From Candidatus Nomurabacteria bacterium (GTDB lineage Bacteria > Patescibacteriota > Patescibacteriia > HK-STAS-PATE-3), in contig CP060223.1 in assembly GCA_023898465.1 (NCBI GenBank), positions 96,001 to 160,000 of the forward strand: a stretch of 64,000 nt of DNA, written 5' to 3'. Shown piece by piece: positions 37,087 to 63,896 of the stretch. The notes beneath the pieces were generated by a model. It made no database searches. It was not told where the DNA came from and saw only the letters and a program-made list of their open reading frames with translations. Both the position numbers and the translations under genes were made by a program. Within the stretch, counting starts at the first letter, position 1, and each line of letters begins with the position of its first letter.

Positions 37087-37090
37087 ATAC

Positions 37091-37624
37091 ATGCTATATA
37101 TCACATACTTTGTTCATGGCACCACAACTGACAATGAGCATGATCTTTGTATGGGTTGGGCGCCGGGTCAACTGTCTGAATTAGGGAAGCGGCAAGCAAA
37201 AGATCTTGGAGAGCAGGTTGACGCGTCACAGTTTGCAGTCATGTTTTGTTCTGATTTGCAACGGGCAGTTGATTCAGCTGAGCTAGGTTTTGGAGGGATG
37301 TTGAAGATAATTCAAGATCAGCGTTTGCGTGAATGCAACTATGGTGACTTAACACAGAGGTCTGAGGATCTTGTGGACTACGCCAAGCATATTGCAGAAC
37401 CATTTCCAAATGGTGAGAGCTTACATGACGTTGAGCAGCGGATGCGGGAATTTTTAGAAATGCTTAACACTGGCTATGCAGATAAACATGTGGCCCTTAT
37501 GGCCCACAAGGCACCTCAACTTGCGCTCGAAGTGCTCCTGAATGGAAAAACGTGGGAGCAAGCGATTACGGAAGACTGGCGTAAAAAGAAAGCTTGGCAA
37601 CCGGGGTGGAGCTATTTGTTTTAG
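37091..37624 (+). CDS. Histidine phosphatase family protein (phosphoglycerate-mutase-like).
   Basis: N-terminal ITYFVHGTTTDNE (RHG-like motif) plus a downstream His. Confidence 0.6.
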   Translation: MLYITYFVHGTTTDNEHDLCMGWAPGQLSELGKRQAKDLGEQVDASQFAVMFCSDLQRAVDSAELGFGGMLKIIQDQRLRECNYGDLTQRSEDLVDYAKHIAEPFPNGESLHDVEQRMREFLEMLNTGYADKHVALMAHKAPQLALEVLLNGKTWEQAITEDWRKKKAWQPGWSYLF

Positions 37625-38091: not shown

Positions 38092-39075
38092 ATGCCATAT
38101 TTTTTCCGTGGACCATTTCTCATAATGATTGCGGCTATGCTGTGGGCCTTAGACGGTTTACTGCGCTCACAGCTTACTGCGTCAATTCCCTCCACCGCCA
38201 TTGTTTTTTATGAGCACCTGGTAGGCTTTGTCCTTCTTCTCCCTTTTTTCTGGAGAGCTCTACCTAAAGTAAAAACATTGCATCGAGCTGATTGGTTTCG
38301 ACTCATTTTACTTACCATAGTGAGTAGTGTGCTTGGCACTATTCTTTTTACCGAGGCATTTGCCCGGAGCGCTGTTTCTTATGACTTCATCACTCCAACC
38401 TTACTGCAAAAACTCCAACCAGTTTTTGTGGTGCTACTCTCAGCTATTCTCTTACGCGAGCGAGTGACATGGCGTTTCATTGGTTTAGCCATACTCGCTT
38501 TAGTAGGTAGCTATATGGTTACTTTTGGATCCGAATCTGTTTCGCTAAGCTGGAGCGGTAAAGAGATAGTGTTTCTCTTATCTATCGGCGCTGCCTTAGC
38601 CTGGGGATCGGGTACTATTTTGAGCAAGAAGATTTTAGAGAAGCTTTCATTTAGCGAGGCGACTTCCTTGCGTTTCTTATTAGCCATTCCTATTAGTGCT
38701 ATCGCGATGCTAACACTTAATCATGGCTATAGTCCGGTGGAAATTTCCGGGGCTTCTTGGCTCCGCTTCGTCGCTATTGGTTTGACTACTGGAGCAGCGG
38801 CGATTCTTATCTACTACCGTGGCTTGCGAATTACACCAGCGAAAGTCTCCACTTTTGCTGAGTTGATGTTTCCCGTCACAAGTATTCTCATAGCCGTGAC
38901 AGCGCTTAATCCCTTTGGCGCGCCGCAGCCCATTAGCTTTGGCCAGGGCCTAGGTATTCTTATCCTCATCGTTTCCATTTTACTTATTGGAACGAGTGAG
39001 CTACCCGCGCCTAAAGTAAAAGAGAGTGAAGCATATGAAGGAGCTACCCAGTCCGAGCCAGTATCTACAACATAA
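38092..39075 (+). CDS. EamA/DMT-family transporter.
   Basis: Ten TM helices in two EamA-like halves. Confidence 0.7.
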   Translation: MPYFFRGPFLIMIAAMLWALDGLLRSQLTASIPSTAIVFYEHLVGFVLLLPFFWRALPKVKTLHRADWFRLILLTIVSSVLGTILFTEAFARSAVSYDFITPTLLQKLQPVFVVLLSAILLRERVTWRFIGLAILALVGSYMVTFGSESVSLSWSGKEIVFLLSIGAALAWGSGTILSKKILEKLSFSEATSLRFLLAIPISAIAMLTLNHGYSPVEISGASWLRFVAIGLTTGAAAILIYYRGLRITPAKVSTFAELMFPVTSILIAVTALNPFGAPQPISFGQGLGILILIVSILLIGTSELPAPKVKESEAYEGATQSEPVSTT

Positions 39076-40078
39076 ACTTGAAACCTGCGGTCAGTATACA
39101 TTGACCGAGTCTGATCACGCTCTTCTCAAAGAAAAAGGCATGGAGGAGTTTTTGTACGCAAAACTTACTTCCAAGAAATTTCGGAAGTGGAGAATAACTC
39201 AAAAAGCAGAAGACCGCATCCGTAATGCACTTTCTGTCACGGTGCCAAAGAATAAGCCACTACAGTTACGTTTTCCCTTTGGGGCATATAAACTTTGGCG
39301 CTTGCCATCAAGTCCAGAAGTGGACTGGGCTGAGTTTTTTACCTTGGCGTATTTCTCAGAGTTCCTCGCACCAATTTTAGCCGCATATCAACCGGGGGTG
39401 GAGTTGTATTTTTCTTCAGATGAGGTAATTGTCGAACCTATGAACAATGTATCTCGAGAAGAAACAGATGCATACCAAGAATCATTCAGGCGTTTGTTGG
39501 CAGAATTTAAAAAGTATTGGCCAAATAATTTCATTGTTGATATTCGACCTGTGCGCAATCTCTATAACAATGCAGAAGAAATTTTCAATGAAGCTCAGCA
39601 AATGATTCCGATAATTGAAGAAAGATATGCGGCCATGTCAAAAGAGGAAGTCGCTTCTGCTGAAAAAACCTCAGCCATGAATATTCGCTGGGATGGAGTT
39701 CAGGATTGGCAGAAGCTTACTGAGGATGAAAAGAAGGAAAAAATTCACTACGGCACAATATTACACGATGCCTATTGCGCGATTAGCAAACGACAACAAT
39801 TCATGCGTAGTGACGATACGATTTTACTTTTTGTAAATAGACAAGTTTCTGATGGTATTCCACTAGGTAGCACTAAGAATTCAATTGCGAAGTTTTGGCC
39901 GGGCTACGGAGTGTTGGAACAAAAAGAAGCAGGCTATATAGAGAGAGTGCTGACCCCGCAACAACTTACTTCATTGCAGCATGAGAAAGCTCAAATTGAA
40001 GCAATCGATTGGCTGCCAATGAAAAACTTTCACGAGATCCAAGTGTATCCTGAGCTGAATTTTACGCTTACTAAATAG
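39035..40078 (+). CDS. Hypothetical cytoplasmic protein, paralog A of a tandem pair.
   Basis: The N-terminal ~45 aa and the C-terminal 25 aa (QIEAIDWLPMKNFHEIQVYPELNF) are nearly identical to those of 40141-41181. Confidence 0.55.
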   Translation: MKELPSPSQYLQHKLETCGQYTLTESDHALLKEKGMEEFLYAKLTSKKFRKWRITQKAEDRIRNALSVTVPKNKPLQLRFPFGAYKLWRLPSSPEVDWAEFFTLAYFSEFLAPILAAYQPGVELYFSSDEVIVEPMNNVSREETDAYQESFRRLLAEFKKYWPNNFIVDIRPVRNLYNNAEEIFNEAQQMIPIIEERYAAMSKEEVASAEKTSAMNIRWDGVQDWQKLTEDEKKEKIHYGTILHDAYCAISKRQQFMRSDDTILLFVNRQVSDGIPLGSTKNSIAKFWPGYGVLEQKEAGYIERVLTPQQLTSLQHEKAQIEAIDWLPMKNFHEIQVYPELNFTLTK

Positions 40079-40140
40079 TTCTAGACAGGATCCATCAGAA
40101 CACTTAGTATGCACTAGGAGAACTTTCTTATTGCAGTCGT

Positions 40141-41181
40141 ATGTCACATTTTAGTCCGAGTCAGTATTTACAACATAGACTCGAAAGTTGTGGTCACTAC
40201 GAGTTGACCGCGTCAGACCATGTTCTACTCAAAGAAAAAGGCATGGAAGAGTTCTTGTACGCCAAGCTTACTTCCAAGAAATTTCGGAAGTGGAGAATTC
40301 AAGAAAGTTACCAAAAAGAGATTCGTGAACAGATTCGCTATTGTGTAGAAAAAAATATTCCAATAGAGCCAACTTGGTTTTTTGGTGGATATAAATTATG
40401 GAGCTTACCCGGCTCGCCTGAACCAAACTGGGCTGAGTTTTTTACTATCGCATATTTTCTACAATTTATTTCTCCAATCGCGGCGGCTTATTCTCCCGGT
40501 GTGACTTTCAAATTTTGGGTTGCTCATGCTTCAATTATGCTGCAGCAAAGCAATATACCCATTAAAGAGTGTATAAAATATAGAGAGGAATTTAATCGAT
40601 TGCTTTCCTTTTTTAGAAAGTACCTTCCCTCAAATATTGTTGTAGAGCTTCATGACTATTCTGAACTTTATCCAGATCAAAACGAATACGAGCAAGAATT
40701 AGAGCAATGTATCCTAAATACAGAAAGAAAATATCACGAAGAATGGACTGAGGATAGAAAAAGAATTAAGAGAACAACTTCAGAATTAAATATACAGTGG
40801 TCTGGAGCAGAGGATTGGACCAAGTTGGGTGAAAGTGAAAGAGAAGAAAAGATTTTTCGTGGACCATTGGTTCATGATGGGTATTGTGCTTTATCAAGAG
40901 TGAACGAAGCATTACGCGGGTCAGGTAAACTTGACTTGAGTGCTACGCCTTTGCCTTCAGGATCAATTCCAGTTGGCACAAGTGCAAGTTCCGTGACTAA
41001 ATTCTGGACCGGAGTTGGTGTGCTTGAAAAACATGATAGTCGCTATGTGGAGCGAATTTTATCCCCTCAGCAATGGAATGCTGTTCAGGGTCTATCTGTT
41101 CAAATTGAAGCAATCGATTGGCTGCCAATGAAAAACTTTCACGAGATCCAAGTGTATCCTGAGCTGAATTTTTCTCGCTAG
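40141..41181 (+). CDS. Hypothetical cytoplasmic protein, paralog B of a tandem pair.
   Basis: See paralog A. The middle region is divergent. Confidence 0.55.
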   Translation: MSHFSPSQYLQHRLESCGHYELTASDHVLLKEKGMEEFLYAKLTSKKFRKWRIQESYQKEIREQIRYCVEKNIPIEPTWFFGGYKLWSLPGSPEPNWAEFFTIAYFLQFISPIAAAYSPGVTFKFWVAHASIMLQQSNIPIKECIKYREEFNRLLSFFRKYLPSNIVVELHDYSELYPDQNEYEQELEQCILNTERKYHEEWTEDRKRIKRTTSELNIQWSGAEDWTKLGESEREEKIFRGPLVHDGYCALSRVNEALRGSGKLDLSATPLPSGSIPVGTSASSVTKFWTGVGVLEKHDSRYVERILSPQQWNAVQGLSVQIEAIDWLPMKNFHEIQVYPELNFSR

Positions 41182-41237: not shown

Positions 41238-41966
41238 ATGGCTGTACACAATATTAAGGGGCATAGCATGTTTTCTCGTAATATCTTGATCGCCCTTTCT
41301 CAACCTGAGGATGGGGACATGCGGGCGCAAGCGTCCGATGGAAACGGCCTAGAACGCCGTAGGATTTTTTTGGAGTCCGAGGGCTTTAGGTCTGATCAGG
41401 CTGTCTACGCTGGACTTGATCATGGCACGAATGTGATTGCAGTCCGCGGGACAGACGCTGGTCAAACTGTTCCAGACGTGGACGGTTTAGTAACGAACGA
41501 AGCAGGTCTAGTCCTGGGTCTGACCGTAGCTGATTGTTTGCCAGTTTATTTGTATGACCCAAGGACCGAGGCGATTGGACTCCTCCATGCCGGGTGGCGC
41601 GGCTTGGAGCAAGGTGTGCTGAGGCAGGGGATTGAACGAATGCAGCAAAGCTTCCGAGTGCACCCAGAGGATGTATTCGCAGCAATTGGTCCGAGTATCC
41701 GATCCTGCCACTATCAAGTAGGCGAGGAAGTGGCGAGACGATTTCGGGCACGCTATTCACTAGCTTTGGAACAGCGGGGACTCGAAACAAGACTGGATCT
41801 TACCAGGGTTGCTCGTATGCAGCTCGGTGAGGTAGGAGTCATTGCGCGTCACATCGAGGTTCATCCTCATTGCACCTACTGTCGGCCGGGTTTGTACTTT
41901 TCTCGTCGGAGGCAGGGCACAGGCTTTGGTCTGATGCTTGCTACAATCGCACGCTTACCAAGTTAG
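41238..41966 (+). CDS. PgeF/YfiH-family (DUF152, laccase-domain, purine-nucleoside-phosphorylase-like) protein.
   Basis: ADCLPVYLYD...GLLHAGWRGL motif. Local GC about 57%. Confidence 0.75.
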   Translation: MAVHNIKGHSMFSRNILIALSQPEDGDMRAQASDGNGLERRRIFLESEGFRSDQAVYAGLDHGTNVIAVRGTDAGQTVPDVDGLVTNEAGLVLGLTVADCLPVYLYDPRTEAIGLLHAGWRGLEQGVLRQGIERMQQSFRVHPEDVFAAIGPSIRSCHYQVGEEVARRFRARYSLALEQRGLETRLDLTRVARMQLGEVGVIARHIEVHPHCTYCRPGLYFSRRRQGTGFGLMLATIARLPS

Positions 41967-42659: not shown

Positions 42660-44894
42660 ATGCCAAATAAATCATTAAAAAAATCTATGCCAAGTACAAA
42701 AGGATCACGCACGGAGGAGGTTGGAGTAAAGACTCGCACTCGAGTTGATACCGCATTTGGTTTGTTGTTGATAGGTGGAGCACTTAGCGTTGGTATGTTT
42801 GCCTTTTTCTTCTTTAGCCAGGGATTCTCAAAGGAAGCTACTTCATTTGGCAATAAGGTGAACGAGCAACATCGCGCATCAAGCCTTTGGCCACATGTGA
42901 GAACGGCGATTCACTTCAATCATCGGCCTGTAAATAGCACAACAGAGGCAAATTTCTTAGCCACGCACTTTGACTATTATGTTGGTCAAGTCGGTACTTA
43001 TGCAAATTATTTACGTCAGGTTAATCCAAACATCAATCTGGCCTTTATGCGCAGCGTACGAGCTATTAACAGCGTGCCGGAATTAGAAACTTGGCTGGCA
43101 GATCATCCTGAATATGATGAGGAAGAATTTTTCTTGCACTACACCCAAGATACCTTGGTTGGACCTAGTGGAAATCAGATTCTCGTAAAGGGTTGGCGAG
43201 AGGAGTGCTCACCAAATTGTGAGCCAGCCGCAACGGCAACTACACGTGAAGAGAGTCGAGTGCCAGATTCTGGTGAGTTTGCCCGGGGTTGGTATGTGCC
43301 AAATCCAAACTATGAAGGTCTGCCTGTTTTTCAAGCTGACATGCTTGCTTTGCGACAAAGTTGGTACGGAATTGATGGCACTTTCTTTGATTGGTGTGCT
43401 GGAGCATCTGTACAAAGCGAGAATCACCTGAGTCGCACTGCTGAGTATGCCGACATAGATGATTCAGATAATTTTCGCCATCCTTTTGTAGGTGATTCAA
43501 TCGCTATCATGGATAAGGTTTTGGATCGCTATAACGAGGAATATGCCGATCAGTATGGATCAATTGATTGGATTCCTTGTAACACGGTAGCTGGATATTG
43601 GACCTATGATCACGGCAACATTGAAAACAATGACTACCGAGACGCTTTACTTGCCAGCGAGTCAAACAGCGAGTTTTTCTGGGAAGTGTGGATGCAATAT
43701 AATGATACTTATCCACTTACCTCAGGGCCAAGTCGAGATGTGCATTTGAAGTATCTCAAAGATACCATTGCGCTATCAAACCAGAAACAAACTGGACTCG
43801 AATTGGTTGCCCTGGGTGATCAGGCTAGCGATCGAACAAACACCTTCTTACTCGGCTTAGCGTATCTCGTCCAAACACCTGATCGCTCGGTAGTGTCATA
43901 TCGACTTGATGTGCCAGCTCATAATTCAGATGAGCATCTACAAAATTGGGCCTGGTTACCACAGTTAGCTTACGACATTGGCCAACCTGCTCAGAACCCA
44001 GCTGGTATTCGAGATGTCTTTGGCAATCAAAACACCAGTGAATTCTATGAATGGGCGACCGGAGCTGATCCGGGAAATTCAGGACATACCTATTCGATTT
44101 ATGCTCGACAATACGAGAATGCATTGGTGCTTACCAAAATGCGTCAGGCTCGTGAGGATGCTTGGGGAGATGCAACCGCGACCACGCATGAGCTTGATCA
44201 GCCATATCGAGTCTTACGGGCAGATGGAAGTGTAGGAGATGAAGTGAGTCAAGTTACTTTGCGTGATAACGAAGCAGTTATCCTCATTCGTACAGAAGCT
44301 CCATTAATCCAAAATGTGCAGACCGACCGTGTCTGGAGCACCCGAGCTTTAATTAGCGCTAAGGTGCAGGACGCACAATCAGTTGTTGTGCAGTACGGTA
44401 AGACCACCCAGTATGGCAATGAACTGGTTTTGAAGCGCTCACGGGTTGATGGTACTTACTCCGTCAATATTAATCGCCTCACTCAAGGCACGCTCTATCA
44501 CTATCGAATAAAGGCAACGGGTCAAAACGGCGCGACAGTGTATTCAAACGATTACAACTTCCGCACGCTGCAGAATTCCTTATCTTTGAAAGATGTTATT
44601 CATGTTTTACGAGATGATGGGACCATCGATGTCACCGTGGAATCGCCAAATGCGGATTTAGTCCAGCTGACGTATAACTCAAAGAAAACACCAAACGTTA
44701 CTGTTACCCTTGAGGAAGCGAGTGAGGGCGTCTTCACCACAACACTTTCTGGATTATTGCCTAATGAGCAATATACCTACAAGGTGCTCACACAACAGGG
44801 AAAAACAAAAGCGTATGCCTCGGGCAGTTTTACCCCTCGGAAGATAGATGAAGATATGTTCCCCAGCATCACACGCACGACAGTAGAAGAATAA
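42660..44894 (+). CDS. Large secreted/anchored hypothetical protein with C-terminal FN3-like beta-sandwich repeats.
   Basis: N-terminal TM. Two C-terminal FN3-like modules (VQYGKTTQYGNEL... and ...YTYKVLTQQGKTKAYASGSF). Confidence 0.55.
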   Translation: MPNKSLKKSMPSTKGSRTEEVGVKTRTRVDTAFGLLLIGGALSVGMFAFFFFSQGFSKEATSFGNKVNEQHRASSLWPHVRTAIHFNHRPVNSTTEANFLATHFDYYVGQVGTYANYLRQVNPNINLAFMRSVRAINSVPELETWLADHPEYDEEEFFLHYTQDTLVGPSGNQILVKGWREECSPNCEPAATATTREESRVPDSGEFARGWYVPNPNYEGLPVFQADMLALRQSWYGIDGTFFDWCAGASVQSENHLSRTAEYADIDDSDNFRHPFVGDSIAIMDKVLDRYNEEYADQYGSIDWIPCNTVAGYWTYDHGNIENNDYRDALLASESNSEFFWEVWMQYNDTYPLTSGPSRDVHLKYLKDTIALSNQKQTGLELVALGDQASDRTNTFLLGLAYLVQTPDRSVVSYRLDVPAHNSDEHLQNWAWLPQLAYDIGQPAQNPAGIRDVFGNQNTSEFYEWATGADPGNSGHTYSIYARQYENALVLTKMRQAREDAWGDATATTHELDQPYRVLRADGSVGDEVSQVTLRDNEAVILIRTEAPLIQNVQTDRVWSTRALISAKVQDAQSVVVQYGKTTQYGNELVLKRSRVDGTYSVNINRLTQGTLYHYRIKATGQNGATVYSNDYNFRTLQNSLSLKDVIHVLRDDGTIDVTVESPNADLVQLTYNSKKTPNVTVTLEEASEGVFTTTLSGLLPNEQYTYKVLTQQGKTKAYASGSFTPRKIDEDMFPSITRTTVEE

Positions 44895-50613: not shown

Positions 50614-53600
50614 ATGAGTATGAAAAACGTTGTACCGGAAGGGGAATACAACCCAGCAAGTATTGAAGCAAAATGGCAGGAGCACTGGAACAAAAAACCA
50701 GATCAGGCTAAGGATTTTGCGCATGATCCAAAGCGCTATCTTCTCATTGAATTTCCTTACCCCTCAGGTGATGGACTGCATGTGGGGCATGTGCGAAGCT
50801 ATGCCGCTCTCGATGTGTTGGCGCGTTATTCTCGCTTAAAGGGTTTTAATGTGCTTTACCCCATCGGCTGGGATGCTTTTGGTTTACCCACCGAGAATTA
50901 TGCGATTAAGACTGGCGTACACCCACGTGTTGCGACTGATAAGAATATTGCCACCTTTCGCCGCCAGCTTAAGGCGCTAGGCCTTTCATTTGATTGGTCT
51001 CGAGAAGTGGATACAACAGATCCAAAATACTATCGATGGACACAGTGGATTTTTTTGCAGTTCTATAAGGCAGGCTTAGCCTATCAGGCAGAGATTCCTA
51101 TTAACTGGTGTCCAAAAGATAAAATCGGTTTGGCCAATGAAGAAGTGGTTGATGGCAAATGCGAACGCTGCGGCACTGAAGTAACGCGTAAAATGCAAAA
51201 GCAGTGGATGTTAAAAATCACCGCCTATGCAGATCGCTTACTACGTGATCTCGATACAGTTGAGTACGTTGAAAAAATTAAAACACAGCAGAAAAACTGG
51301 ATAGGTAAGAGCGAGGGTGCTGAAATATCTTTTCAAATAGCTAGTAAGGAGTCGCAAAAACCTCGCTTCGTACTTCTCCATGGTTTTCAGGGCTCAGCTA
51401 AAGGTAACTTTTTCCCATGGCTAAAAGATGAGTTGGTCGCAAAGGGCTATGAGGTGGAAGTACCTGAATTACCAAACAGCGCTCATCCGACTGAAGAGGA
51501 ACAGGTAAGTTATGTACTTGAACATTGTCGCTTTGATGAAAACACCATCGTGTTTGGTCATTCGCTTGGTACAGTCGTGGCCATGAAGGTTATAGAAAAG
51601 CTTCCCACAAAAGTAGCTGGCTTGGTTATGGCCGGTGGATTTACCCAGGCTGATTTTTCTGATCACGATCGACCATTCCGCGATACCTTTACATGGAATT
51701 TTGATTTCCAGGCGATTCGAGATAAAGCAGGTTTTATAAAAGTGCTACATGACGTGCATGATGATGCCGTGCCCGAGGGAGCTGGAGAGGCTTTAGCAAA
51801 AGCGCTCGAAGTGCCGTGCTACAAGGTGACCGCAAATGAAGAGCATTTCTGCGCAAAGCAAGAGCCTTATCTATTAGCGCATCTCATGCCAAACACACTT
51901 TTGGTTGGTACGCAAAATCAGGCAAAGGTGGAAATGCTTCGACGAGCATTGGCCCCTTACCCAAATATTCACCTCATCAGTTTAAGTGATATTGGTAAGG
52001 TCGATGATCAGGCTTTAGTAGAGGGCGATGACTTTCGTGCTAATGCAAAAATGAAAGCAGATTTTTATCACCGAGCCACAGGTTTACCAACCATATCGAC
52101 GGATCATATTCTTTGGATAGAGAAATGGCCTGAGGATAATGGCTTCATTACGCATATTCGCAAATTAGCAAATCCGAAATCTGGACGAGCAACAGATGAA
52201 GAACTAGCAGAATGGATAAAAAAATTTATCGATAAAAATGGTGAGTCGCGTACAGCCTTTCATTATGCTATTGGTTATGCCGATGAGAAGGGAGTGCAGG
52301 GCTTTGTGAGTATTCAGCGCGAATACATGTTGAAGGCTAATCCGGCTAAAGCACGATGGGAAGGCTATGCGGTCGGTGCATTTTTGCGTGACCCCGTGAC
52401 TGATGCGTATCGAGAAGAGATGCCCGCAGAGATCGCTTTTGATCGCTTCTTCGCCACAGTGCGCAATGAAATTGTGCCGCAGGTTTTCGATATGAGCACC
52501 TTGACGGTCTTTACCACACGACCCGATACCATCTTCGGTGTCACGTATATGGTTGTAGCCCCTGAACATGAACTCCTTGCCAAGTATCAATCACACATTA
52601 CAAATTGGGATGAAGTTCAAAAGTATGTGCGAGAGGCCGCCAAGAAATCCGATATGGAGCGGACCGAGTTGGCCAAAGAAAAAAGTGGCGTTGAGCTCAA
52701 AGGTATTCAGGCAGTAAATCCGGCAAATGGTGAAGTAATCCCGATTTGGGTAGCTGACTATGTGCTGAGTTCTTATGGCACCGGAGCGATAATGGCTGTG
52801 CCGGCGCATGATCAGCGAGACAATGAGTTTGCAAAAAAGTACTCCCTGCAAATAAGAGAAGTAGTAAGAGGTTTTAATCGTGTAGGAGAGAAAAAAGATA
52901 TTGTATATTCTGGCGAGGGGGTCCTAGTAAATTCTCAGGACTTTGATGGAGAAAAAAGCGAAGACGCAAAAAAGAACATTGTAAGGTGGTTAGAAGAAAA
53001 AGGACTCGGTCATTCAGCAGTCAATTTTAAACTTCGCGACTGGGTATTTTCACGTCAGCACTACTGGGGCGAGCCGATTCCGATTATTCATTGTCCTAAG
53101 TGCGGAGCTGTTCCAGTGCCGGAGAAAGACCTACCAGTGGAATTGCCTCATGTAGAAAAATACCAACCCACTAATACTGGGGCTTCACCATTAGCTGCGA
53201 TCGAGGATTGGGTGCAGGTGAAATGTCCGAAGTGTAAGGGCGAAGCGAGTCGAGAAACCGACACCATGCCGAATTGGGCCGGGAGCTCGTGGTATTTCCT
53301 GCGCTATTCGGATCCGCACAATAGTAAAGCCTTTGCTGATAAGAAAAAGCTAGAGTATTGGCTGCCGGTGGATATTTACAATGGTGGCAATGAGCACACC
53401 ACCCTCCATTTACTCTACTCGCGTTTCTGGCATAAGTTTTTATTTGATCAGGGCTTGGTACCAACTCCAGAACCATACCAGCATCGTCATTCGCATGGGA
53501 TTGTGTTAGCTGAGGATAATCGCAAGATGTCAAAGAGTTGGGGGAACGTGGTCAATCCGGATGATTATGTGCAGGAGTACGGTGCAGATAGCGTGCGCAT

Positions 53601-54198
53601 GTACGAGTTATTTATGGGACCATTTGAGGATATGATTCCGTGGTCAACCAAGGGTATCGTGGGTGTGCATCGCTTCTTAAATCGTGTGTGGGAACTTTAT
53701 CGTAAAGTTACAGAAGAGACGGCCCAAGTAACAGAAGAGAGGGACATTCACAAAGCTGTGAAAAAGGTTGGGGAAGACCTCGAGGCTTTTCGTTTCAACA
53801 CCGCGGTGAGCACTTTGATGGAATATTTTAATCACTTCCGTGATGAAGTGCAGCAGGGTAGGCTCGATAAAGAAGCAGCAGAAAAGTTTCTCGTGATCCT
53901 TTTCCCATTTGCGCCGCACCTTGCCTCAGAGCTCTGGGAGCAGTTAGGAAAGAAGAGCGATATTCGCGAACAATCATGGCCAAACTTTGATCCAAACGCT
54001 TTACAAGCGGAGACCGTCACGATCGGTGTGCAGATTAATGGCAAAGTGCGCGCCTCCATAAGCCTTTCACCAGAAGCAAGCGAAGCAGAAGCGCTGGAGC
54101 TAGCCTTAGCCGAAGAAAATATTCAACGCTATCTTCAAAAGGGACAGCCCAAGAAGGTTATTTATCGTGCAGGAAAAATTCTCAATCTGATCGCCTGA
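50614..54198 (+). CDS. leuS: Leucyl-tRNA synthetase carrying a ~385 aa insertion (YdeN/RBBP9-like serine hydrolase plus Ham1/ITPase-like domain) at about aa 243-627, nt 51340-52495.
   Basis: HIGH (HVGHVRSY), KMSKS, CP1 editing domain TTRPDTIFGVTYMVVAPEH, C-terminal tRNA-binding domain. The insertion lies between KNWIGKSEGAEISF and TVFTTRPDT, where E. coli LeuRS has about 9 aa. Confidence 0.93.
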   Translation: MSMKNVVPEGEYNPASIEAKWQEHWNKKPDQAKDFAHDPKRYLLIEFPYPSGDGLHVGHVRSYAALDVLARYSRLKGFNVLYPIGWDAFGLPTENYAIKTGVHPRVATDKNIATFRRQLKALGLSFDWSREVDTTDPKYYRWTQWIFLQFYKAGLAYQAEIPINWCPKDKIGLANEEVVDGKCERCGTEVTRKMQKQWMLKITAYADRLLRDLDTVEYVEKIKTQQKNWIGKSEGAEISFQIASKESQKPRFVLLHGFQGSAKGNFFPWLKDELVAKGYEVEVPELPNSAHPTEEEQVSYVLEHCRFDENTIVFGHSLGTVVAMKVIEKLPTKVAGLVMAGGFTQADFSDHDRPFRDTFTWNFDFQAIRDKAGFIKVLHDVHDDAVPEGAGEALAKALEVPCYKVTANEEHFCAKQEPYLLAHLMPNTLLVGTQNQAKVEMLRRALAPYPNIHLISLSDIGKVDDQALVEGDDFRANAKMKADFYHRATGLPTISTDHILWIEKWPEDNGFITHIRKLANPKSGRATDEELAEWIKKFIDKNGESRTAFHYAIGYADEKGVQGFVSIQREYMLKANPAKARWEGYAVGAFLRDPVTDAYREEMPAEIAFDRFFATVRNEIVPQVFDMSTLTVFTTRPDTIFGVTYMVVAPEHELLAKYQSHITNWDEVQKYVREAAKKSDMERTELAKEKSGVELKGIQAVNPANGEVIPIWVADYVLSSYGTGAIMAVPAHDQRDNEFAKKYSLQIREVVRGFNRVGEKKDIVYSGEGVLVNSQDFDGEKSEDAKKNIVRWLEEKGLGHSAVNFKLRDWVFSRQHYWGEPIPIIHCPKCGAVPVPEKDLPVELPHVEKYQPTNTGASPLAAIEDWVQVKCPKCKGEASRETDTMPNWAGSSWYFLRYSDPHNSKAFADKKKLEYWLPVDIYNGGNEHTTLHLLYSRFWHKFLFDQGLVPTPEPYQHRHSHGIVLAEDNRKMSKSWGNVVNPDDYVQEYGADSVRMYELFMGPFEDMIPWSTKGIVGVHRFLNRVWELYRKVTEETAQVTEERDIHKAVKKVGEDLEAFRFNTAVSTLMEYFNHFRDEVQQGRLDKEAAEKFLVILFPFAPHLASELWEQLGKKSDIREQSWPNFDPNALQAETVTIGVQINGKVRASISLSPEASEAEALELALAEENIQRYLQKGQPKKVIYRAGKILNLIA

Positions 54199-56886: not shown

Positions 56887-57759
56887 TTGGCTTTTCAGGG
56901 GGAACAACCAGGGGAGAATGACAATACAAAGCTTTTCAATAATGCCCCAGAGCAAGGTAATCAGGTTCCGCCTGAGCAAAGTGGCTCGCGGGGCTTTTTT
57001 ATTGCGTTAATTTCCTTTGGCGCAGTTGGGCTTTTGCTCGGAATTGTGAGCTTGGCAAAGAATATTCAGTCACCTTTTGTACCAAATGCCAACCTCATTG
57101 CGGTGCAGCAGGACACCAATCAAGAAAACATCTCTGATTTGCAGCAAAGAGACACGGATGGAGATGGGTTAAGTGATTACGAAGAACTTTATCAATACAA
57201 CACTAGCCCGTATTTAGCTGATTCTGACTCGGATACCATTGATGATAAGAAAGAAATCGAGAGTGGAAACGATCCGAATTGTCCAAGTGGCCAGGATTGT
57301 ACCGGATTAGGCGTAAATACAAACACGAGTACAGTTGACGATGCATTGGGGCTTACTAATAGCTCCACCAATACATCCGCGACAAATACCAGTACGAGCA
57401 CGAGTGCGGTTGATATGGCACAGTTGCGTGAAGTGTTAAAGGCCTCGGGTGCTCCTGCCTACGTCGTGGATTCAACCGATGATGCTACTTTGCTTGAGCT
57501 TTACAACGAATTAGTAGCTGAGCAGGGTGGTGACTCGCTTGATACCAACTCGACAGATACAAATGCGAGTAACACGTCGACTGTTGATGACGCTACCACC
57601 TTACAACTTCTGCAAAGCTTATCAGCCAGCGAGATACGCGCACTTCTCATTCAAAGTGGCGTTGATCAATCATTAATCGATCAAGTAGACGATTCTGAGC
57701 TGCAGCAAATATTCCTTGATGCAGTGCAATCCGAGTTTTCCTCTGACTCCTCATCATGA
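56887..57759 (+). CDS. Secreted/anchored acidic Ser/Thr/Asp-rich protein with a thrombospondin-type-3-like Ca-binding repeat.
   Basis: TTG start. TM FFIALISFGAVGLLLGIV. DTDGDGLSDYEELYQYNTSPYLADSDSDTIDD. Confidence 0.5.
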   Translation: MAFQGEQPGENDNTKLFNNAPEQGNQVPPEQSGSRGFFIALISFGAVGLLLGIVSLAKNIQSPFVPNANLIAVQQDTNQENISDLQQRDTDGDGLSDYEELYQYNTSPYLADSDSDTIDDKKEIESGNDPNCPSGQDCTGLGVNTNTSTVDDALGLTNSSTNTSATNTSTSTSAVDMAQLREVLKASGAPAYVVDSTDDATLLELYNELVAEQGGDSLDTNSTDTNASNTSTVDDATTLQLLQSLSASEIRALLIQSGVDQSLIDQVDDSELQQIFLDAVQSEFSSDSSS

Positions 57760-60700
57760 TTCTGCCTTCTGAGCAATCAAAGAAGAAAAAGAGCGTGCGA
57801 GCAATCGCTAGTTTTCTGTTGCCAATGGTTTTACTGGTGACAGTGTTGGGAGTTGCCTTACCACGAGAAAGCAAAGCTCAAATTGGCGCAGTTGGCAGTT
57901 TGGCGGGATTTATTTGGAAGGAAGTAAAAGATTCAGCCCGTTATATTGCCACGCAGGCAAAAGCTGCTTTTGAAAAAGCTCAGGATACCAGTTACGCCAT
58001 TGCGTTTAAGAATAGCTTACGAGTTTTCTTAGGTAAGGTGGCAGAAGATACCGCCGTGTGGGTTTCCAGTGCCGGGACGGGCCAAAAGCCGCTCTTCATC
58101 ACTGATCCGCATTATTGGCGAAATTTGACCGATGCGGCTGGCGGCGACTTTTTGGATTCTATTTCCAAAGATGTTTTTGGAGTAAGTCTGTGTGAGCCGC
58201 TCGATGTGCAAAAGAAGGTTCAACTAGAAATTGCCACCCGCAATCTTATCAATCCTTTAAACGTGTGTGAGAACAGTTGTAACACGACATACAACAATAC
58301 AGCCGAGCAGCTAGGGAACATGAAATCGTATCTTGATCTTCAAGAACGTAAATCACAAGCAAGTCCGAATGCGCTTACCTATTGTCCTGATGAAGAGTTT
58401 CTGCTTGGCATTAGCACTCCAGACAATCCGAATGATCCCTCAACCTATGGCACACAGATGTCAGAGCTTGAGTGTTTTCAACTCATCTCAAACAACTACA
58501 ATCGTCGAAGGCAGCAGGCGACTTCAGAATTGACCTCATGTTTGCAAGATTGTAATCGCGGATCTCGTAAGTCATCCTGTACCGCAACCGCAGTATGGGG
58601 AAACATTCGAGACATTCAGGATTTCTCAGTAGAATTTCAAACTTACTTTAAGCCTGAGCAAAATGATATTGGTCAGATTCTTACCCTTTTCGGCTTGACT
58701 CAGCAAGCAGAAGAAGAGGCGAAGATTGCCGAAGAGACAATTCAGAATAGTAAGTTAGGCGCGGTAACTTCAACGCTTCGTACAGACATCCTTACCCCGG
58801 CCAGCTTGGTAGAAGAAAAAGCAGCCCAGCCTATTCGAGAGTCTTCAACAATTGATACTACGCAAACCGGATCCTTACTCGCTGATGTGGGTAATATTTT
58901 TGCGAACACCTTAACGCAGCGTTTAATGGAGAGATTCTTCCGCAGTAAGTGTGGATTAAATCCAAGCGCATGCGAGGGCCCAGGCCAAACAGACTCCAAA
59001 CTCGGCTCCTTACTCTTTAGCACACGGACTCCAAGCGGTCTGGCAGCTGCGCGACTCCAGTTCGCCAGCTTAGCTCGAATCGATTACACAACAGGAGATC
59101 CAGGTCGTTCACAAATAGCAGTATCAAATCAATTAGAAGCGCAAGGTATAATTAATTCCGGTTTCCGACAGGCTATTGATGAGCACATGACAGTGCGAGA
59201 AGCGTTGAACGCCGGCTTGCTAAATGCCAGCGCAACCTTTGGCTACGACGAAACAGACAATGAAGCGGAAAATGGAATTCCATACCGCTCCATCCTTTAT
59301 CTGCGTAAATATCGAGTCGTCCCTGTTGGCTGGGAGTTGGCCGCTGTGTATATCGGTTCAGATGCAGATAGACAGTCACATGGCTTAGGCGAACTCGTCG
59401 ACCTCTATGATTGGTGTGGACAGGACGCTGCACATGGTTTACCAAATCCAGATGATCCAGAGACACCATTGCCTTCACCATTCTGCGGATTGGTTGACCC
59501 GAGTTGGGTATTAAAAGCTCCTGACACGTACTGTCGACGTCAGGGCGCTGGTGATGAAATTATCCAACGTCGCTATGTGTGTGACACTGATACCAATGGC
59601 GATGGTCGAATTAATTGTAGCCTGAGCGATTTGGGTGGAGGGGATATTGGCTCCTGGATTATTTCACGAAATCAAGATACCTGCGTTGATGAGCCTAGCT
59701 GTGTGGCCGAAGATAGTGATGGGAATTGTCTCGCCTATGGATATTGCTATGAAGAAAAGCCGATTTGGCGTTTCGGCGGTGAAACCTGTAACGGGTACTA
59801 TGCTTCTTGTCGATCTTATACAAATTCAAGTGGCATTCAACTCGCTTACTTAAAAGATACCCTTGATGAGGGCGATTGTAATCCAGAGAATGCCGGTTGT
59901 CGCGCGTACTGCAGCGATGGCGAATACAATGCCGTAAATCAGACCTGGAGTTGTCGCTCTGATTCAGGTGATACTATATACTTTGATCGGGACGCGAGCT
60001 CATGTCCAGATGGTGCGGTTGGATGTACTGAATTAATTCGCACCGAAGCTGGATCAAACGTTTTAGCAAACGCTGGATTTGAATACTATACAGGTACCAG
60101 CGATGACGGCACTCGAGATACTTTTGGCTTCTGCAGTAATAATGGCGCTGCCTGTCAAACCAATGGAGACTGTGGACTCGGGGCAAGTTGTGAAGGTTGG
60201 AAAACTGATAACGGTGCCGTCCAACTACAAGCAGTCAGCGATGATGTGAGTGGCGTTGGTTCACCAGACACCATTGCAGTGCAAATGAGCGCCGGGGTTG
60301 GCAAGCTCATTCACGAAGCTGATGCCTATCAAGATTTGAGCGGCATGCAGATGACTTTCTCATACTACGCAAAAGCGCTTGGAGCAAGTTGTAGCGGCAC
60401 CTTTGGCGTACAAAGCGCTGATGCAATTTATGTGCCAGCCGCTGATGAAGAGGGTAGCGCTGAGTACACCGATCTCTGGCAGCAATATGCTGGAGTCTTC
60501 ACCTTCCCAGAATCAGCTTATACTAAGAGTAAGGTGCAGGCGTACATAAATAATCCGGGCTGCGGTATTTTGGTTGACTCAGCTAAATTAGAATTTAGTG
60601 CTGCGCAAACAGTGTACTCGGATTATCAGACGGTGAATGAAATTTCCATGCAAGTTCCACAGACCACTCTGCTGTCCAACGGAGACTTCAGCTTAGATGA

Positions 60701-63700
60701 TGGAACTGACTTCTTTAGCTACCCAGCCCCAGTTGATGGAGATAACTCTACCGCAGATGACAATATTCCAGACGGCTGGACACCACGAGCAGTAGGAAGT
60801 ATCGCAATTGATCGCACGCAAGGCCACTTTGATGATGAATCACTTCGGATTGACGCTAGTGGAGTGCGTAGCTATGCGGGCCAGCTTGTTCCAGTTGAAC
60901 AAGGTAAAACCTATGAAGTGAGCGGTTGGGTAAAGAGTCAATTGACTCCAAGTGGTGGTGATACTCCATTTGGCGCACTCATGACCGAATGTGTGTACAG
61001 TGCCAGCCATCCAAATGCTTACGAAACATTTAATCCTTCGGCTGATGAGCCAAGCGAGTGTCTCTTGTCTAACTTCGAAACCTACATTCGTCCTTCAGTT
61101 GAAGACGGTAACAATTATTATGTAACAACTGGGACGAGCGACTGGACTTATCTCCGCTATACCGTGACCGCAAATAATCCTGATATCGGCTTTATGCGAG
61201 TTGCTTGTACAAATGTGTCTCAGGATACAGGAGGCATTCAAGCTGATGGTTCTGGTACGGTTTGGTGTGATGATGTGAAGGTGGTGGAAACTCCACTAAG
61301 TTGTGACCGCGAAGAAGTTGGTTGTCAAAAATATCGACCAGTTGGGGCTGGTGATGCCGTAAATGGCGTAGTGCGTTCCAGCGACATTTGTCCGCTTGAT
61401 CAGGTTGGTTGCCGCCAATTCCGTGAAATGCCGATTGAACATGTGCCTCAGCGTGATGGCATTGATCCAGTCTACATTATTGAAAGTTCGGGAAACCAAT
61501 GTACAGCTGCCAGTGTGGGTTGTGAGGAATACACTAACCTTGACCTGGGTGAGTCAGGCGGAGAAGCCTTAGCGTACTTCTCACAAATTAAACAGTGTGT
61601 GAAGCCGACAGATCCAAACGCAGGTAACTTCTATACTTGGGAAGGTAGCGAACAAGCTGGTTATAACCTTCGTGCATACAAACTTCTCACGAGTAATGTT
61701 GATCAAGGTCCATGTACAAATCTTTCGGTCGGTACAACTACCAGCGATCCAATCTGTGAAGACGATAGCAATCCAATCGCTGAGTGTAGTGTGGATGACC
61801 TAGGCGTGAACCCTGATTGTACTGAATACTTTAACGATTCCGGCGAAGTCTTTTATCGCTTGAAGAGTCGAACAGTCACCGTCTCCAATGATTGTCACCC
61901 ATTCCGTAATTCAATTGACGCAGCTGCAGGTGAGGATAGTGTGTATCACGTGATTCCGAGCGAAGCAGTCACTTGTTCCGCCGCTGCAGCTGGTTGTCGT
62001 CAGTACAAGGGAACAACTGCAGATAGTAGCCGTACCGTCTACAATGAGAATTTTGAAAACGGCTCGGTGAACGGTTGGAGTGGGGGCGTGACCTATTCAA
62101 ATGAGTCAGTTAACTTAGGCGGTCACTCCATGCGCACGAGCGACGACACTCTTTTCTCAATCGATCTCTCAAACACCATTACTAACGGCCGAACCTACAG
62201 TATTCAGTTCTCCTATAAGGCTCGGCAGACCGGTGACCTAGCCTTTCAAATTCGCGATGAGCTAGGCGAGAGCTTTGGCAGCACGGTAGCTATTCGGCCG
62301 GGTGAAGAATGGGCGCAGTATGAGCTCGGACCAGTCTTTGTGAATTCAACCGGCGACCCGACCGAGTTTATCTTAGAATTTACCACTCCTTCAAGCCTAC
62401 CAGGCGGGTGGATCGATAATATTAAATTACGCGAATCAGTTGACAGTATTTATCGTATCAAGGGTACGACCTCGTCCTGTGATCCAGCAAATGCCGGATG
62501 TCGCCTCTATGTTGATAGCGCAAATAGCCCGGTGGCAGTTACCTCATTTAGTCATCTCTGCTCTGATCGGGCAGTCGGCTGTGAGGCAATGACAGTGACG
62601 CAAAATTCAGATTATCCTTTTGTGCAGGATGTACAAGATAATCCTGATAAGTTTATTCAAGGTGATCTGACTCTCGCGTATGTAAACTCCTCAAGCGCTT
62701 ATTGTCGGGCAGAGTACCAGGGCTGTACTGAGTATGGCGTTGCTTCCTATGATCAAAATAATGAAGTACTTGCATGGTCAAGCACGAATTTGATTAATGA
62801 TCCAGACACTTATCCGGTAGCACTTTGTCATCCGAGTCAGAATCGCTGTGAAGAGTACACCGAGAGTATTAGTGGCAGTAAGGCCTATTTCCGCGATCCA
62901 GGCAATCAAACCTGTGAATATCGTGAATCAGCTGCCTATGCTGGATTATTAGTAGACGGTTGGTTTATCACGGGCACAAATGAGCCATGTCCATCACAGT
63001 CGTTGACTTGCTTCGGCGGCACTCTGGCTGGTGAACCGTGTATGACGTCGGATCAGCAGCAAGCTTGTCTAAACAATAATGGCTACTGTATCGCCTATCC
63101 ATTAGACGGAGAAGTGAAAGAGGTAAATCTTATCTGTGGTTCAACCTGTTCAACTGGTGGATCAGTTGGTCAGGCTTGTGTGAATAATGGTCAATGCTCG
63201 AATGTGTGTGTAGGCGGCACGAATGCTGGTGCATCTTGTCTACGCAATGATGATTGTGGTGGAGGTGGTACCTGTGAGATAGGGCAGTGCGGTGATGGTG
63301 GTGTGCGGCCTTTCTGTGATGGTCGTCAAACCGGATCAACTCGACAAGATCAGGAAAATTGTTTGGCTGATGATGGGCTCTGTACGGCCATTCCTCAGGT
63401 AGGTCAGCCAGGGCGAACCTGTCAGGGTGGTCCAAACGACGGCCTGTCTTGTGCCAATGATGCATACTGTTCCAGTGTTTGTGCTGGTGGTACAAATGCT
63501 GATAACGCTTGCTTTAACGATAGCGATTGTCCAGGGAGTACCTGTGGCGTGGAAGCGAGTTGTGCAAATTACTGGGTTGGCACCTGCGAGCCGGCCGCTG
63601 CGGGATGTACGGAATTCCGTGACCCTCTTGATCCGCCGCAACAAGGAGCCTATCCAAATGGTTGTCAGGTGAATTGTACGCTGGCCACTGACCGTAATGA

Positions 63701-63896
63701 TAATCTCATTGAGGTAGATGCTGAGTGTCGACCTGGCTCAACAGCAGCGTCACAACCTGGCTGTCAGCCTTACTACATCTTGCGGCAAAGTATTACTTCG
63801 CAAGTTTCCGAATGTAATTCAACTATTGATTTCACTACCGGGTGTCAGCCATTCTATGACACCGCTAATCCAAATGCTAATTTTATAGGGGGTTAA
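57756..63896 (+). CDS. Giant (2046 aa) secreted Cys-rich protein with a reiterated C-x4-GC-x2-[YF] motif and at least two CBM/galactose-binding-like beta-sandwich domains.
   Basis: Signal/TM at the N-terminus. More than 10 copies of the motif (CDREEVGCQKY, CPLDQVGCRQF, CTAASVGCEEY, CSAAAAGCRQY, CDPANAGCRLY, CSDRAVGCEAM, CPDGAVGCTEL, CNPENAGCRAY...). CBM-like segments around nt 60050-60900 and 62040-62430. Cys-dense C-terminal 350 aa. Confidence 0.85.
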   Translation: MILPSEQSKKKKSVRAIASFLLPMVLLVTVLGVALPRESKAQIGAVGSLAGFIWKEVKDSARYIATQAKAAFEKAQDTSYAIAFKNSLRVFLGKVAEDTAVWVSSAGTGQKPLFITDPHYWRNLTDAAGGDFLDSISKDVFGVSLCEPLDVQKKVQLEIATRNLINPLNVCENSCNTTYNNTAEQLGNMKSYLDLQERKSQASPNALTYCPDEEFLLGISTPDNPNDPSTYGTQMSELECFQLISNNYNRRRQQATSELTSCLQDCNRGSRKSSCTATAVWGNIRDIQDFSVEFQTYFKPEQNDIGQILTLFGLTQQAEEEAKIAEETIQNSKLGAVTSTLRTDILTPASLVEEKAAQPIRESSTIDTTQTGSLLADVGNIFANTLTQRLMERFFRSKCGLNPSACEGPGQTDSKLGSLLFSTRTPSGLAAARLQFASLARIDYTTGDPGRSQIAVSNQLEAQGIINSGFRQAIDEHMTVREALNAGLLNASATFGYDETDNEAENGIPYRSILYLRKYRVVPVGWELAAVYIGSDADRQSHGLGELVDLYDWCGQDAAHGLPNPDDPETPLPSPFCGLVDPSWVLKAPDTYCRRQGAGDEIIQRRYVCDTDTNGDGRINCSLSDLGGGDIGSWIISRNQDTCVDEPSCVAEDSDGNCLAYGYCYEEKPIWRFGGETCNGYYASCRSYTNSSGIQLAYLKDTLDEGDCNPENAGCRAYCSDGEYNAVNQTWSCRSDSGDTIYFDRDASSCPDGAVGCTELIRTEAGSNVLANAGFEYYTGTSDDGTRDTFGFCSNNGAACQTNGDCGLGASCEGWKTDNGAVQLQAVSDDVSGVGSPDTIAVQMSAGVGKLIHEADAYQDLSGMQMTFSYYAKALGASCSGTFGVQSADAIYVPAADEEGSAEYTDLWQQYAGVFTFPESAYTKSKVQAYINNPGCGILVDSAKLEFSAAQTVYSDYQTVNEISMQVPQTTLLSNGDFSLDDGTDFFSYPAPVDGDNSTADDNIPDGWTPRAVGSIAIDRTQGHFDDESLRIDASGVRSYAGQLVPVEQGKTYEVSGWVKSQLTPSGGDTPFGALMTECVYSASHPNAYETFNPSADEPSECLLSNFETYIRPSVEDGNNYYVTTGTSDWTYLRYTVTANNPDIGFMRVACTNVSQDTGGIQADGSGTVWCDDVKVVETPLSCDREEVGCQKYRPVGAGDAVNGVVRSSDICPLDQVGCRQFREMPIEHVPQRDGIDPVYIIESSGNQCTAASVGCEEYTNLDLGESGGEALAYFSQIKQCVKPTDPNAGNFYTWEGSEQAGYNLRAYKLLTSNVDQGPCTNLSVGTTTSDPICEDDSNPIAECSVDDLGVNPDCTEYFNDSGEVFYRLKSRTVTVSNDCHPFRNSIDAAAGEDSVYHVIPSEAVTCSAAAAGCRQYKGTTADSSRTVYNENFENGSVNGWSGGVTYSNESVNLGGHSMRTSDDTLFSIDLSNTITNGRTYSIQFSYKARQTGDLAFQIRDELGESFGSTVAIRPGEEWAQYELGPVFVNSTGDPTEFILEFTTPSSLPGGWIDNIKLRESVDSIYRIKGTTSSCDPANAGCRLYVDSANSPVAVTSFSHLCSDRAVGCEAMTVTQNSDYPFVQDVQDNPDKFIQGDLTLAYVNSSSAYCRAEYQGCTEYGVASYDQNNEVLAWSSTNLINDPDTYPVALCHPSQNRCEEYTESISGSKAYFRDPGNQTCEYRESAAYAGLLVDGWFITGTNEPCPSQSLTCFGGTLAGEPCMTSDQQQACLNNNGYCIAYPLDGEVKEVNLICGSTCSTGGSVGQACVNNGQCSNVCVGGTNAGASCLRNDDCGGGGTCEIGQCGDGGVRPFCDGRQTGSTRQDQENCLADDGLCTAIPQVGQPGRTCQGGPNDGLSCANDAYCSSVCAGGTNADNACFNDSDCPGSTCGVEASCANYWVGTCEPAAAGCTEFRDPLDPPQQGAYPNGCQVNCTLATDRNDNLIEVDAECRPGSTAASQPGCQPYYILRQSITSQVSECNSTIDFTTGCQPFYDTANPNANFIGG

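Follow-up and report, generated by a model that had tools for sequence, protein, structure and literature searches.

Probable segmental gene conversion at the ends of two tandem isonitrile-synthase-fold paralogs in a Nomurabacteria genome

Introduction

It is known that bacterial paralogs can evolve in concert through gene conversion, as do tufA and tufB of Salmonella, and models of partial conversion under divergent selection exist for duplicated genes. We analysed a 64,000-nucleotide stretch of DNA (the window) from a Candidatus Nomurabacteria bacterium, a tiny-genome member of the CPR (Patescibacteria) (contig CP060223.1, positions 96,001 to 160,000), in which two neighbouring genes, here called A and B, resemble such pairs in having identity tracts that include synonymous sites, in being closer to each other within a genome than to orthologs, and in giving different trees for different segments. 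They differ from the tufA/tufB type in that the apparent conversion is confined to both gene ends, the cores are saturated and fall into two deep clades, and the mosaic occurs in three lineages.

In fold, the closest described proteins are IsnA, PvcA and PIsnA (PF05141; PDB 3E59, 9DH4 and 9DHM). A-type proteins share with them the F-P/G-x-K, D-x-A-E, Y-x-P-G and S-D motifs, but the CPR family to which A and B belong is only 12-17% identical to them and carries an N-terminal KLTSKKFRKW motif of its own, the B-type is without Ser-Asp, and, unlike for IsnA and PvcA, no Fe/2OG dioxygenase (PvcB/IsnB) was detected next to the CPR family genes. Yeast Dit1, another PF05141 member, forms formyl-tyrosine, indicating that members of this Pfam family need not make isonitriles (PMC7345447); it differs from the present pair in being eukaryotic and in working with the P450 Dit2, which has no counterpart at the A/B locus. 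The class Ic aminoacyl-tRNA synthetases (TyrRS/TrpRS) and the cyclodipeptide synthases are more distant, with only about 170-200 residues that superpose; unlike the synthetases, A and B have no anticodon or tRNA-binding domain, and no positionally equivalent HIGH or KMSKS was identified. A literature search on CPR bacteria and isonitrile chemistry found no paper linking the two.

Results

Layout and neighbourhood of the gene pair

The features of the locus are listed in Table 1. No terminator-like site was found in the spacer between the two genes, which makes cotranscription likely, and A and B are probably a cotranscribed tandem. The neighbours of the pair in the window were His_Phos_1, EamA, Cu-oxidase_4 and HU genes. 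Among 80 GTDB loci no conserved operon partner was found, each neighbour family being common to at most 10 of the 80, and the commonest neighbour clusters were ABC ATPase, RuvB and His_Phos_1. A PvcB-like or Fe(II)/2-oxoglutarate dioxygenase partner was found neither among the window neighbours nor among the neighbour-family clusters of the 80 loci, at which the neighbours were compared as clusters and only some were annotated one by one.

Table 1. Coordinates of the features of the A/B locus in the window
Feature	Position	Strand	Description
EamA-family transporter gene	38092..39075	+	Upstream; overlaps the gene A start with its 3' end
Gene A	39035..40078	+	A-type (A' clade) PvcA/IsnA-fold protein, 347 aa
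Gene A, alternative start	39026	+	GTG; 350 aa from there
5' similar block, gene A	39050..39196	+	aa 9-57; ends at the family-wide KLTSKKFRKW motif
3' gene-conversion tract, gene A	39991..40063	+	73 nt, identical to the gene B tract
A/B spacer	40079..40140	+	62 nt, unique sequence
Gene B	40141..41181	+	Equals P0002, annotated "hypothetical protein"; B-type paralog, 346 aa
5' similar block, gene B	40153..40299	+	aa 5-53; partner of the gene A block
3' gene-conversion tract, gene B	41100..41172	+	73 nt, identical to the gene A tract
Cu-oxidase_4 (YfiH/PgeF-like) gene	41238..41966	+	Downstream of B; Pfam E-value 8.8e-58

A and B belong to a remote branch of the isonitrile-synthase fold

Within the DIT1/PvcA/IsnA isonitrile-synthase fold, the family of A and B forms a remote branch that is specific to the CPR. 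The AF2 model of gene B (pLDDT 91) had the PvcA/IsnA three-dimensional fold (Foldseek against PIsnA, 6.7e-9). A profile HMM search, as suggested in an earlier note on this DNA that did not recognise the family, gave a divided answer: gene A scored just over the gathering cutoff of PF05141 (DIT1_PvcA; 29.6 against 26.4 bits), with only 132 of the 273 profile positions aligned, whereas gene B had no Pfam match. The same division was seen across the family, with PF05141 matches at E<=0.01 in 33 of the 44 members of alignment A2 but in only 3 of the 18 members of the B-type alignment A3. Against the NCBIfam PvcA equivalog NF045653 (L-tyrosine isonitrile synthase), gene A reached 11.9 bits, far from the cutoff of 600, and gene B had no match. 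When 1.84 billion cluster representatives were searched with a profile of the CPR family itself, only 516 matched at E<=1e-3.

In the profile alignment, all four of the motifs that align with PIsnA (FP.K, D.AE, Y.PG and SD) were kept in the A-type, and gene A retains the F-SSDE/D...N motif of the family. The B-type kept FP.K, D.AE and Y.PG, and its S-D was replaced by A-H (FWVAHASIML, alignment A3); gene B is also altered around residues 250-280. Gene B retains nearly all of the family-invariant residues, and the B-type is the sole copy in most B-type genomes (loci L001-L006, L016, L084, L085 and L087). Probably A and B both function as enzymes and differ in their substrate or reaction specificity; as in IsnA, the ligands would be an amine resembling an amino acid and a phosphorylated cosubstrate.

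Similarity is concentrated at the two ends

BLASTP aligned A and B at 50% identity over 341 aa, and the identity was distributed very unevenly. In the N-terminal block, residues 9-57 of A (ORF numbering from 39026) matched residues 5-53 of B at 43 of 49 positions (88%), and in the C-terminal block residues 323-346 of A and 321-344 of B (QIEAIDWLPMKNFHEIQVYPELNF) were identical at 24 of 24. Beyond this block each protein has its own tail of 2-4 residues. The cores were about 39-44% identical in amino acids and about 50% identical in nucleotides. The earlier note had described tandem paralogs with near-identical termini and divergent cores, and this description held (88% in the N-terminal block, 100% over the last 24 residues and ~39% in the core), except that the identical C-terminal stretch comprises 24 residues and not 25. 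Uniform nucleotide divergence, which the note had named as the outcome that would speak against it, was not what the alignment gave; the divergence was strongly non-uniform.

The 3' tract was recently converted

The two genes share an uninterrupted identical run of 73 nt near their 3' ends, a length that was reached in none of 5000 codon-column shuffles, in which the longest run averaged 15 nt and had a maximum of 32 nt. The C-terminal block has 21-22 degenerate codons, every one of which was identical, versus 47 of 100 in the core (P about 1e-7), and dS was 0.07 over codons 322-347, while the core dS was saturated. The identity does not reach the stop codons but ends a few codons short of them, still within the genes. 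On the sequence evidence, the identical 3' ends are due to recent gene conversion, the direction of which is ambiguous in the window pair. Identity of synonymous sites over 73 nt refutes purifying constraint at the protein level as the cause at this end.

Another account of the shared tract is that it is an artefact, in which two strain alleles were misassembled side by side, or a functional RNA or DNA element of 73 nt carried by both genes. Misassembly gains some plausibility from L081 and L082, which show that strain or species alleles can differ in their cores, but the two copies in the window are separated by a unique spacer and have distinct 5' ends, and the independent assembly of L007 contains the same tandem pattern with a different sequence. 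A nucleic acid element is opposed by the end of the identity within the coding sequence, and a functional RNA element was rejected, since the tract had no Rfam match and no stable fold, folding worse than shuffled sequence (z +1.94). We regard the artefact or element account as extremely improbable.

The 5' similarity is older

The 5' block gave a different picture, with dN of 0.06-0.08, a near-saturated dS of about 1.0-1.6 and dN/dS of about 0.05. Identical runs of 20 nt (39125-39144) and 32 nt (39164-39195) were found in the gene A block, and many synonymous differences occurred elsewhere. These values show that the 5' similarity did not arise by recent conversion, and it mainly reflects older shared ancestry and strong purifying selection; conversion at this end is inferred only from the phylogeny and the 20- and 32-nt runs. 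Lineage-specific co-constraint at the protein level could contribute. The earlier note had offered gene conversion or constraint at both ends, and the two ends divided this proposal between them, conversion applying to the 3' end (dS 0.07, 73-nt run) and constraint to the 5' end (dN/dS about 0.05). Conversion at both ends, as far as the note entertained it, agrees with the incongruence of both termini with the core described below, but recent conversion fails at the 5' end (dS about 1-1.6).

Termini group by genome and cores group by type

Across 44 family members, the first ~40 and the last ~25 residues were variable and among the least conserved parts of the protein, and KLTSKKFRKW (aa 46-55) was the only stretch conserved family-wide within the terminal regions. 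With termini that rank among the most variable regions in the family, the pattern is not explained by generic constraint. The closest non-paralog identity of the termini was only 0.50-0.56. In the core NJ tree the B-type was monophyletic in 100 of 100 bootstraps and coresident genes were never paired. The tree of the termini paired genes A and B of the window (bootstrap 99), P0136 and P0134 (94), and P0005 and P0108 (90). Thus the core groups by type and the termini group by genome, an incongruence that indicates segmental gene conversion.

Purifying constraint without any conversion, with conservation simply highest at the two ends, has in its favor the family-wide conservation of KLTSKKFRKW and the many synonymous differences in the 5' block. 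The low conservation of the terminal residues (first 40 and last 25), the low identity to the nearest non-paralog termini and the clustering of termini by genome at 90-99% bootstrap all argue against it, and we give it hardly any credence.

The mosaic recurs in other genomes

A second tandem pair, at locus L007, has the order B then A and contains a 91-nt identical run (again reached in none of 5000 shuffles), with the last 38 aa identical. Its shared C-terminus looks B-like, which suggests conversion from B to A there. Two further loci of different species, L081 and L082, are orthologous, one with a B core and the other with an A core; their flank and gene termini had dS of about 1, and their downstream pepC39 genes were 80% identical in amino acids. 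In L007 and in P0005/P0108 the block boundaries coincided with the two conserved motifs, KLTSKKFRKW and GTTK.S.TKFWTG. Tandem pairs were also found in metagenomes at L148 and L156, both in divergent branches of the family. No terminal homogenisation was seen in the L148 pair, and the L156 pair had only modest terminal similarity and an identical 38-nt upstream element, indicating that tandem pairs in the family do not as a rule carry the mosaic.

The three A-types associated with a B-type formed an exclusive clade (A'), with a bootstrap of 58%. This value and the gene order, A-B in the window and B-A in L007, leave a single ancient tandem origin not secure.

These data bear on replacement of core cassettes, in which a resident gene, single or recently duplicated, received a core of the other type from elsewhere by recombination anchored in KLTSKKFRKW and GTTK.S.TKFWTG and kept its original ends. 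The alternative cores of L081 and L082 between shared ends and beside a shared downstream gene speak for such swaps, as do block boundaries at both motifs and the unlike order of the two tandem pairs. However, L081 and L082 are equally well explained if a tandem pair with homogenised ends underwent differential loss. The Cu-oxidase_4 gene is the syntenic anchor of the B-type, following B in the window and in the B-only relatives L084 and L085, so B looks like a resident gene and not an import; the exclusive clade of B-linked A-types fits long co-inheritance better than repeated imports; and the tracts of one gene pair differ in age (dS 0.07 versus at least 1), which points to repeated events. 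We consider cassette replacement very doubtful.

A different reading, for which the earlier note gave a partner-binding interface as an example, attributes the shared termini to selection for a lineage-specific interface, by which A and B would hetero-oligomerise or dock a common fast-evolving partner. The termini evolve fast between species and are alike within a genome in three lineages, and the N-terminal similarity survives near-saturated synonymous sites. At similar dS, the dN/dS of the N-terminus was 0.05-0.08 within genomes versus 0.20 between species (P0005 versus P0108), but this comparison rests on about 37 codons. Most B-type genomes have no nearby A-type copy, indicating that B does not need A. 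No enrichment of couplings between the N- and C-termini was detected by mfDCA (344 sequences, Meff 288), the output of which was dominated by gap artefacts and contained 9 such pairs in the top 340, as expected by chance. The data fit a neutral model without selection, in which conversion continues wherever homology is retained, and we view a selected interface as unlikely.

Discussion

The results are best explained, with good though not full confidence, by ancient paralogs in a CPR-restricted enzyme family, which have diverged in function and whose ends were homogenised by segmental gene conversion while their cores stayed separate. The cores represent two deep lineages, the A' clade with the IsnA-like Ser-Asp and the B clade with Ala-His and a remodelled segment at ~250-280. 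The last 73 nt would stem from a very recent conversion, and the first ~150 nt from an earlier one that purifying selection has preserved since. The core is probably spared because its DNA, at about 50% identity, is too divergent for homologous pairing, and probably also because conversions that erase the difference between A and B were selected against.

Gene conversion is an ordinary, known mechanism, here found in a poorly known enzyme family, and the value of the finding is moderate. The A/B pair is a clean case, with conversion tracts of unlike age at both ends and saturated cores, and the end-conversion mosaic recurs in independent CPR genomes and in the form of alternative cores at one orthologous locus. 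The analysis also defines a B-type subfamily, previously unannotated, in which the putative active-site motif is altered. For CPR biology, it brings out a conserved, unstudied family of the isonitrile-synthase fold whose genes stand alone, without the usual dioxygenase partner. In a wider reading, which we think quite unlikely, the family would be a new enzyme class with types A (Ser-Asp) and B (Ala-His), its fast-evolving termini a genome-specific docking or oligomerisation module needed in common by both types, so that concerted evolution of the ends is selected, and its cores interchangeable cassettes at one locus, lying side by side in one genome or replacing each other from one related species to the next. 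If that were true, it would point to undescribed small-molecule chemistry, possibly of isonitriles or formyl-amino acids, in episymbiotic ultra-small bacteria.

Identity profile of the tandem paralogs

Genes A and B, a tandem pair of the PvcA/IsnA (isonitrile synthase) fold family, are separated by a 62-nt spacer of unique sequence, and their products are 50% identical over 341 residues by BLASTP. The near-identical ends and divergent middle described in the earlier note were borne out, with 43 of the 49 residues of the N-terminal block (A residues 9-57) and all 24 residues of the C-terminal block, QIEAIDWLPMKNFHEIQVYPELNF, identical to B. Across the core, identity is ~39% in A residues 58-282 and 44% in residues 283-321. 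Only the quoted block lengths needed small corrections, the identical C-terminal block being 24 residues. Divergence is thus not uniform along the genes; identity is strongly non-uniform in both protein and DNA. DNA comparison revealed a perfectly identical 73-nt run near the 3' ends; in the 5' block the runs of identity are shorter, at 20 and 32 nt. In 5000 codon-column shuffles the longest chance run averaged 15 nt and never exceeded 32 nt.

The two ends differ in age

Every one of the 21 degenerate codons that encode identical residues in the C-terminal block is the same in both genes, versus 47 of 100 in the core (P about 1e-7), and dS (Nei-Gojobori) is 0.07 there, versus saturation in the core. 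Gene conversion at the 3' end was very recent. The N-terminal block has a dS of ~1.0 (1.6 over residues 9-45) and a dN of 0.06-0.08, and its identical-codon usage (27/41) exceeds that of the core only slightly. The ancestry of the 5' end is far younger than that of the core, with synonymous sites already near saturation, and its similarity has since been maintained by purifying selection. Of the two alternatives in the earlier proposal, gene conversion therefore applies to the 3' end and strong constraint to the 5' end, where purifying selection acts on older shared ancestry.

Alignment of 44 family members placed the first ~40 and last ~25 residues among the protein's most variable regions, KLTSKKFRKW (aa 46-55) being the sole conserved motif in the terminal blocks. 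The best non-paralog identity of the terminal segments was 0.50-0.56, versus 0.74 and 0.96 for A against B. The variability of the termini and the synonymous identity of the 73-nt run effectively exclude pure constraint. Segment-wise neighbor-joining trees (65 taxa, 100 bootstraps) were built from core and terminal columns. In the core-column tree, the B-type core lineage was monophyletic in 100 of 100 replicates and co-resident genes were never paired; in the terminal-column tree, the window's two genes (winA and winB) grouped together in 99 of 100.

An Rfam search for an RNA element in the identical tract gave no match, the 73-mer folded worse than shuffled sequence (z +1.94), and other genomes carry the pattern in different sequences; an embedded RNA or DNA element as the cause of identity is effectively excluded. 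An assembly artefact is likewise effectively excluded. The shared termini may be under selection as an interface common to both paralogs, a possibility suggested by an N-terminal dN/dS of 0.05-0.08 within genomes versus 0.20 between species at similar dS, although these numbers are small and B stands alone in most genomes. We propose an ancient origin for the two paralogs, whose cores have diverged and whose ends would have been homogenised through repeated segmental gene conversion; sequence divergence, and also selection to hold the two types distinct, would have shielded the core.

Recurrence in other genomes

A GTDB-wide scan with ORF screening identified a second tandem pair, at locus L007 of another Patescibacteria MAG, in which B (P0134) precedes A (P0136). 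The N-terminal ~35 aa of this pair are near-identical and the last 38 aa identical, with a 91-nt identical run, a length reached in 0 of 5000 shuffles, and a C-terminal dS of 0.15-0.38. Since the shared C-terminus resembles that of other B-types, the sequences suggest conversion from B to A. The third case is that of P0005 (A-type core, L082/L083) and P0108 (B-type core, L081), which are alike in their unusual termini and in position, each being followed at the same locus by an orthologous Peptidase_C39_2 gene. Their gene ends and the neighbouring gene are equal in synonymous divergence (dS about 0.9-1.2), and their cores share no DNA homology. Two histories fit this case: a homogenised tandem pair from which different members were lost, or a core replaced as a cassette, the latter being possible for L081/L082.

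End-homogenisation was absent from two tandem pairs of more divergent branches, L148 and L156, the latter having only modest terminal similarity and an identical upstream 38-mer. This L156 element, GCTTACGATGGAGTCGTGTCCATCCCGCATCTCCAA, includes a GATGGA-N6-TCCATC hairpin. Its two copies, at ~1903-1940 and ~2953-2990, each sit immediately before a probable start codon and could serve both genes as a 5' regulatory element.

In the core tree, the three B-associated A-type proteins (A') group to the exclusion of all others (58% bootstrap, 65 taxa), and they do so among 153 taxa as well, which suggests that the A'-B partnership is old. B is independent of A, because the majority of B-type loci lack an A-type neighbour. 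B adjoins Cu-oxidase_4 in the window and in the B-only relatives L084 and L085, and looks like the resident gene at that locus.

Features of the window

Features of the window and their coordinates
Feature	Position	Strand	Description
Gene A	39026 (GTG) or 39035 (ATG, public annotation)-40078	+	ORF
Gene B	40141-41181	+	ORF
Identical run in A	39991-40063		73 nt
Identical run in B	41100-41172		73 nt
His_Phos_1 gene	37088-37621	+	Histidine phosphatase
High-GC segment	1-9225		GC 57-59%; remainder of window about 45-47%
Low-GC segment	30001-31000		Local dip to 36.5%
744-aa protein	42660-44894	+	C-terminal CBM_48, fn3 and purple-acid-phosphatase-N-like domains; N-terminal transmembrane-like segment
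Leucyl-tRNA synthetase	50614-54195	+	1194 aa
2046-aa ORF	57756-63893	+	CBM_4_9 carbohydrate-binding domain the sole Pfam match

The leucyl-tRNA synthetase is unusual in architecture: its N-terminal catalytic part and its editing domain are separated by an inserted alpha/beta-hydrolase domain (Abhydrolase_1/6, Ser_hydrolase; aa ~250-450). The eight large ORFs (236-495 aa) in the high-GC segment had no Pfam match at 1e-5, and the segment is possibly a foreign island that codes for unknown proteins. The 2046-aa product is probably a giant surface protein, and the domains of the 744-aa protein make it probably a surface glycan-binding protein.

A stand-alone PvcA-fold family

On the 1.08-Mb contig of this Candidatus Nomurabacteria MAG, gene A is annotated as 'L-tyrosine/L-tryptophan isonitrile synthase family protein' and gene B as hypothetical. 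PF05141 (DIT1_PvcA) scored 29.6 bits against A and gave no match to B, the PvcA equivalog score (11.9) did not reach the cutoff of 600, and the family profile matched PIsnA in the PDB (E 0.003). This sequence evidence is weak; the predicted structures are decisive for the fold. The AF2 models were confident (pLDDT 92 for A and 91 for B, pTM 0.91) and share a single topology. In the profile alignment, the family motifs FGxYK, DWAE, YxPG and SSD align with FPTK, DMAE, YPPG and SDG of PIsnA. The family is small, a profile search of 1.84 billion proteins giving 516 representatives at E<=1e-3, and every named source belongs to Patescibacteria. B-types keep nearly all family-invariant residues, have FWAAHPSIMKRQSN in place of F-SSDDxIIERMDN, and have a remodelled HDAYCALSKRR...FTT segment.

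No conserved gene neighbourhood was found at 80 GTDB loci and the window, and no PvcB-like dioxygenase among the neighbours annotated there. In the window, the His_Phos_1 gene lies <5 kb from a family gene, and in 5 of the 80 loci (L011, L019, L024, L029 and L031) so do genes of one neighbour cluster, whose representative reads as His_Phos_1-like. This weak association may matter if a phosphosugar is among the enzyme's substrates.

Tandem paralogs are well known to undergo gene conversion, and by structure the proteins fall within a known superfamily. In the literature searched, no stand-alone PvcA-fold family was found described for CPR bacteria. New at a modest level are the existence of this family, the delineation of the B-types as a subfamily whose putative active-site motif is altered, and a recurrent mosaic restricted to gene ends, with tracts of different ages. 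As yeast Dit1 illustrates, PF05141 membership need not mean an isonitrile product (PMC7345447). A and B would be two active enzymes of IsnA-like architecture that differ in specificity.
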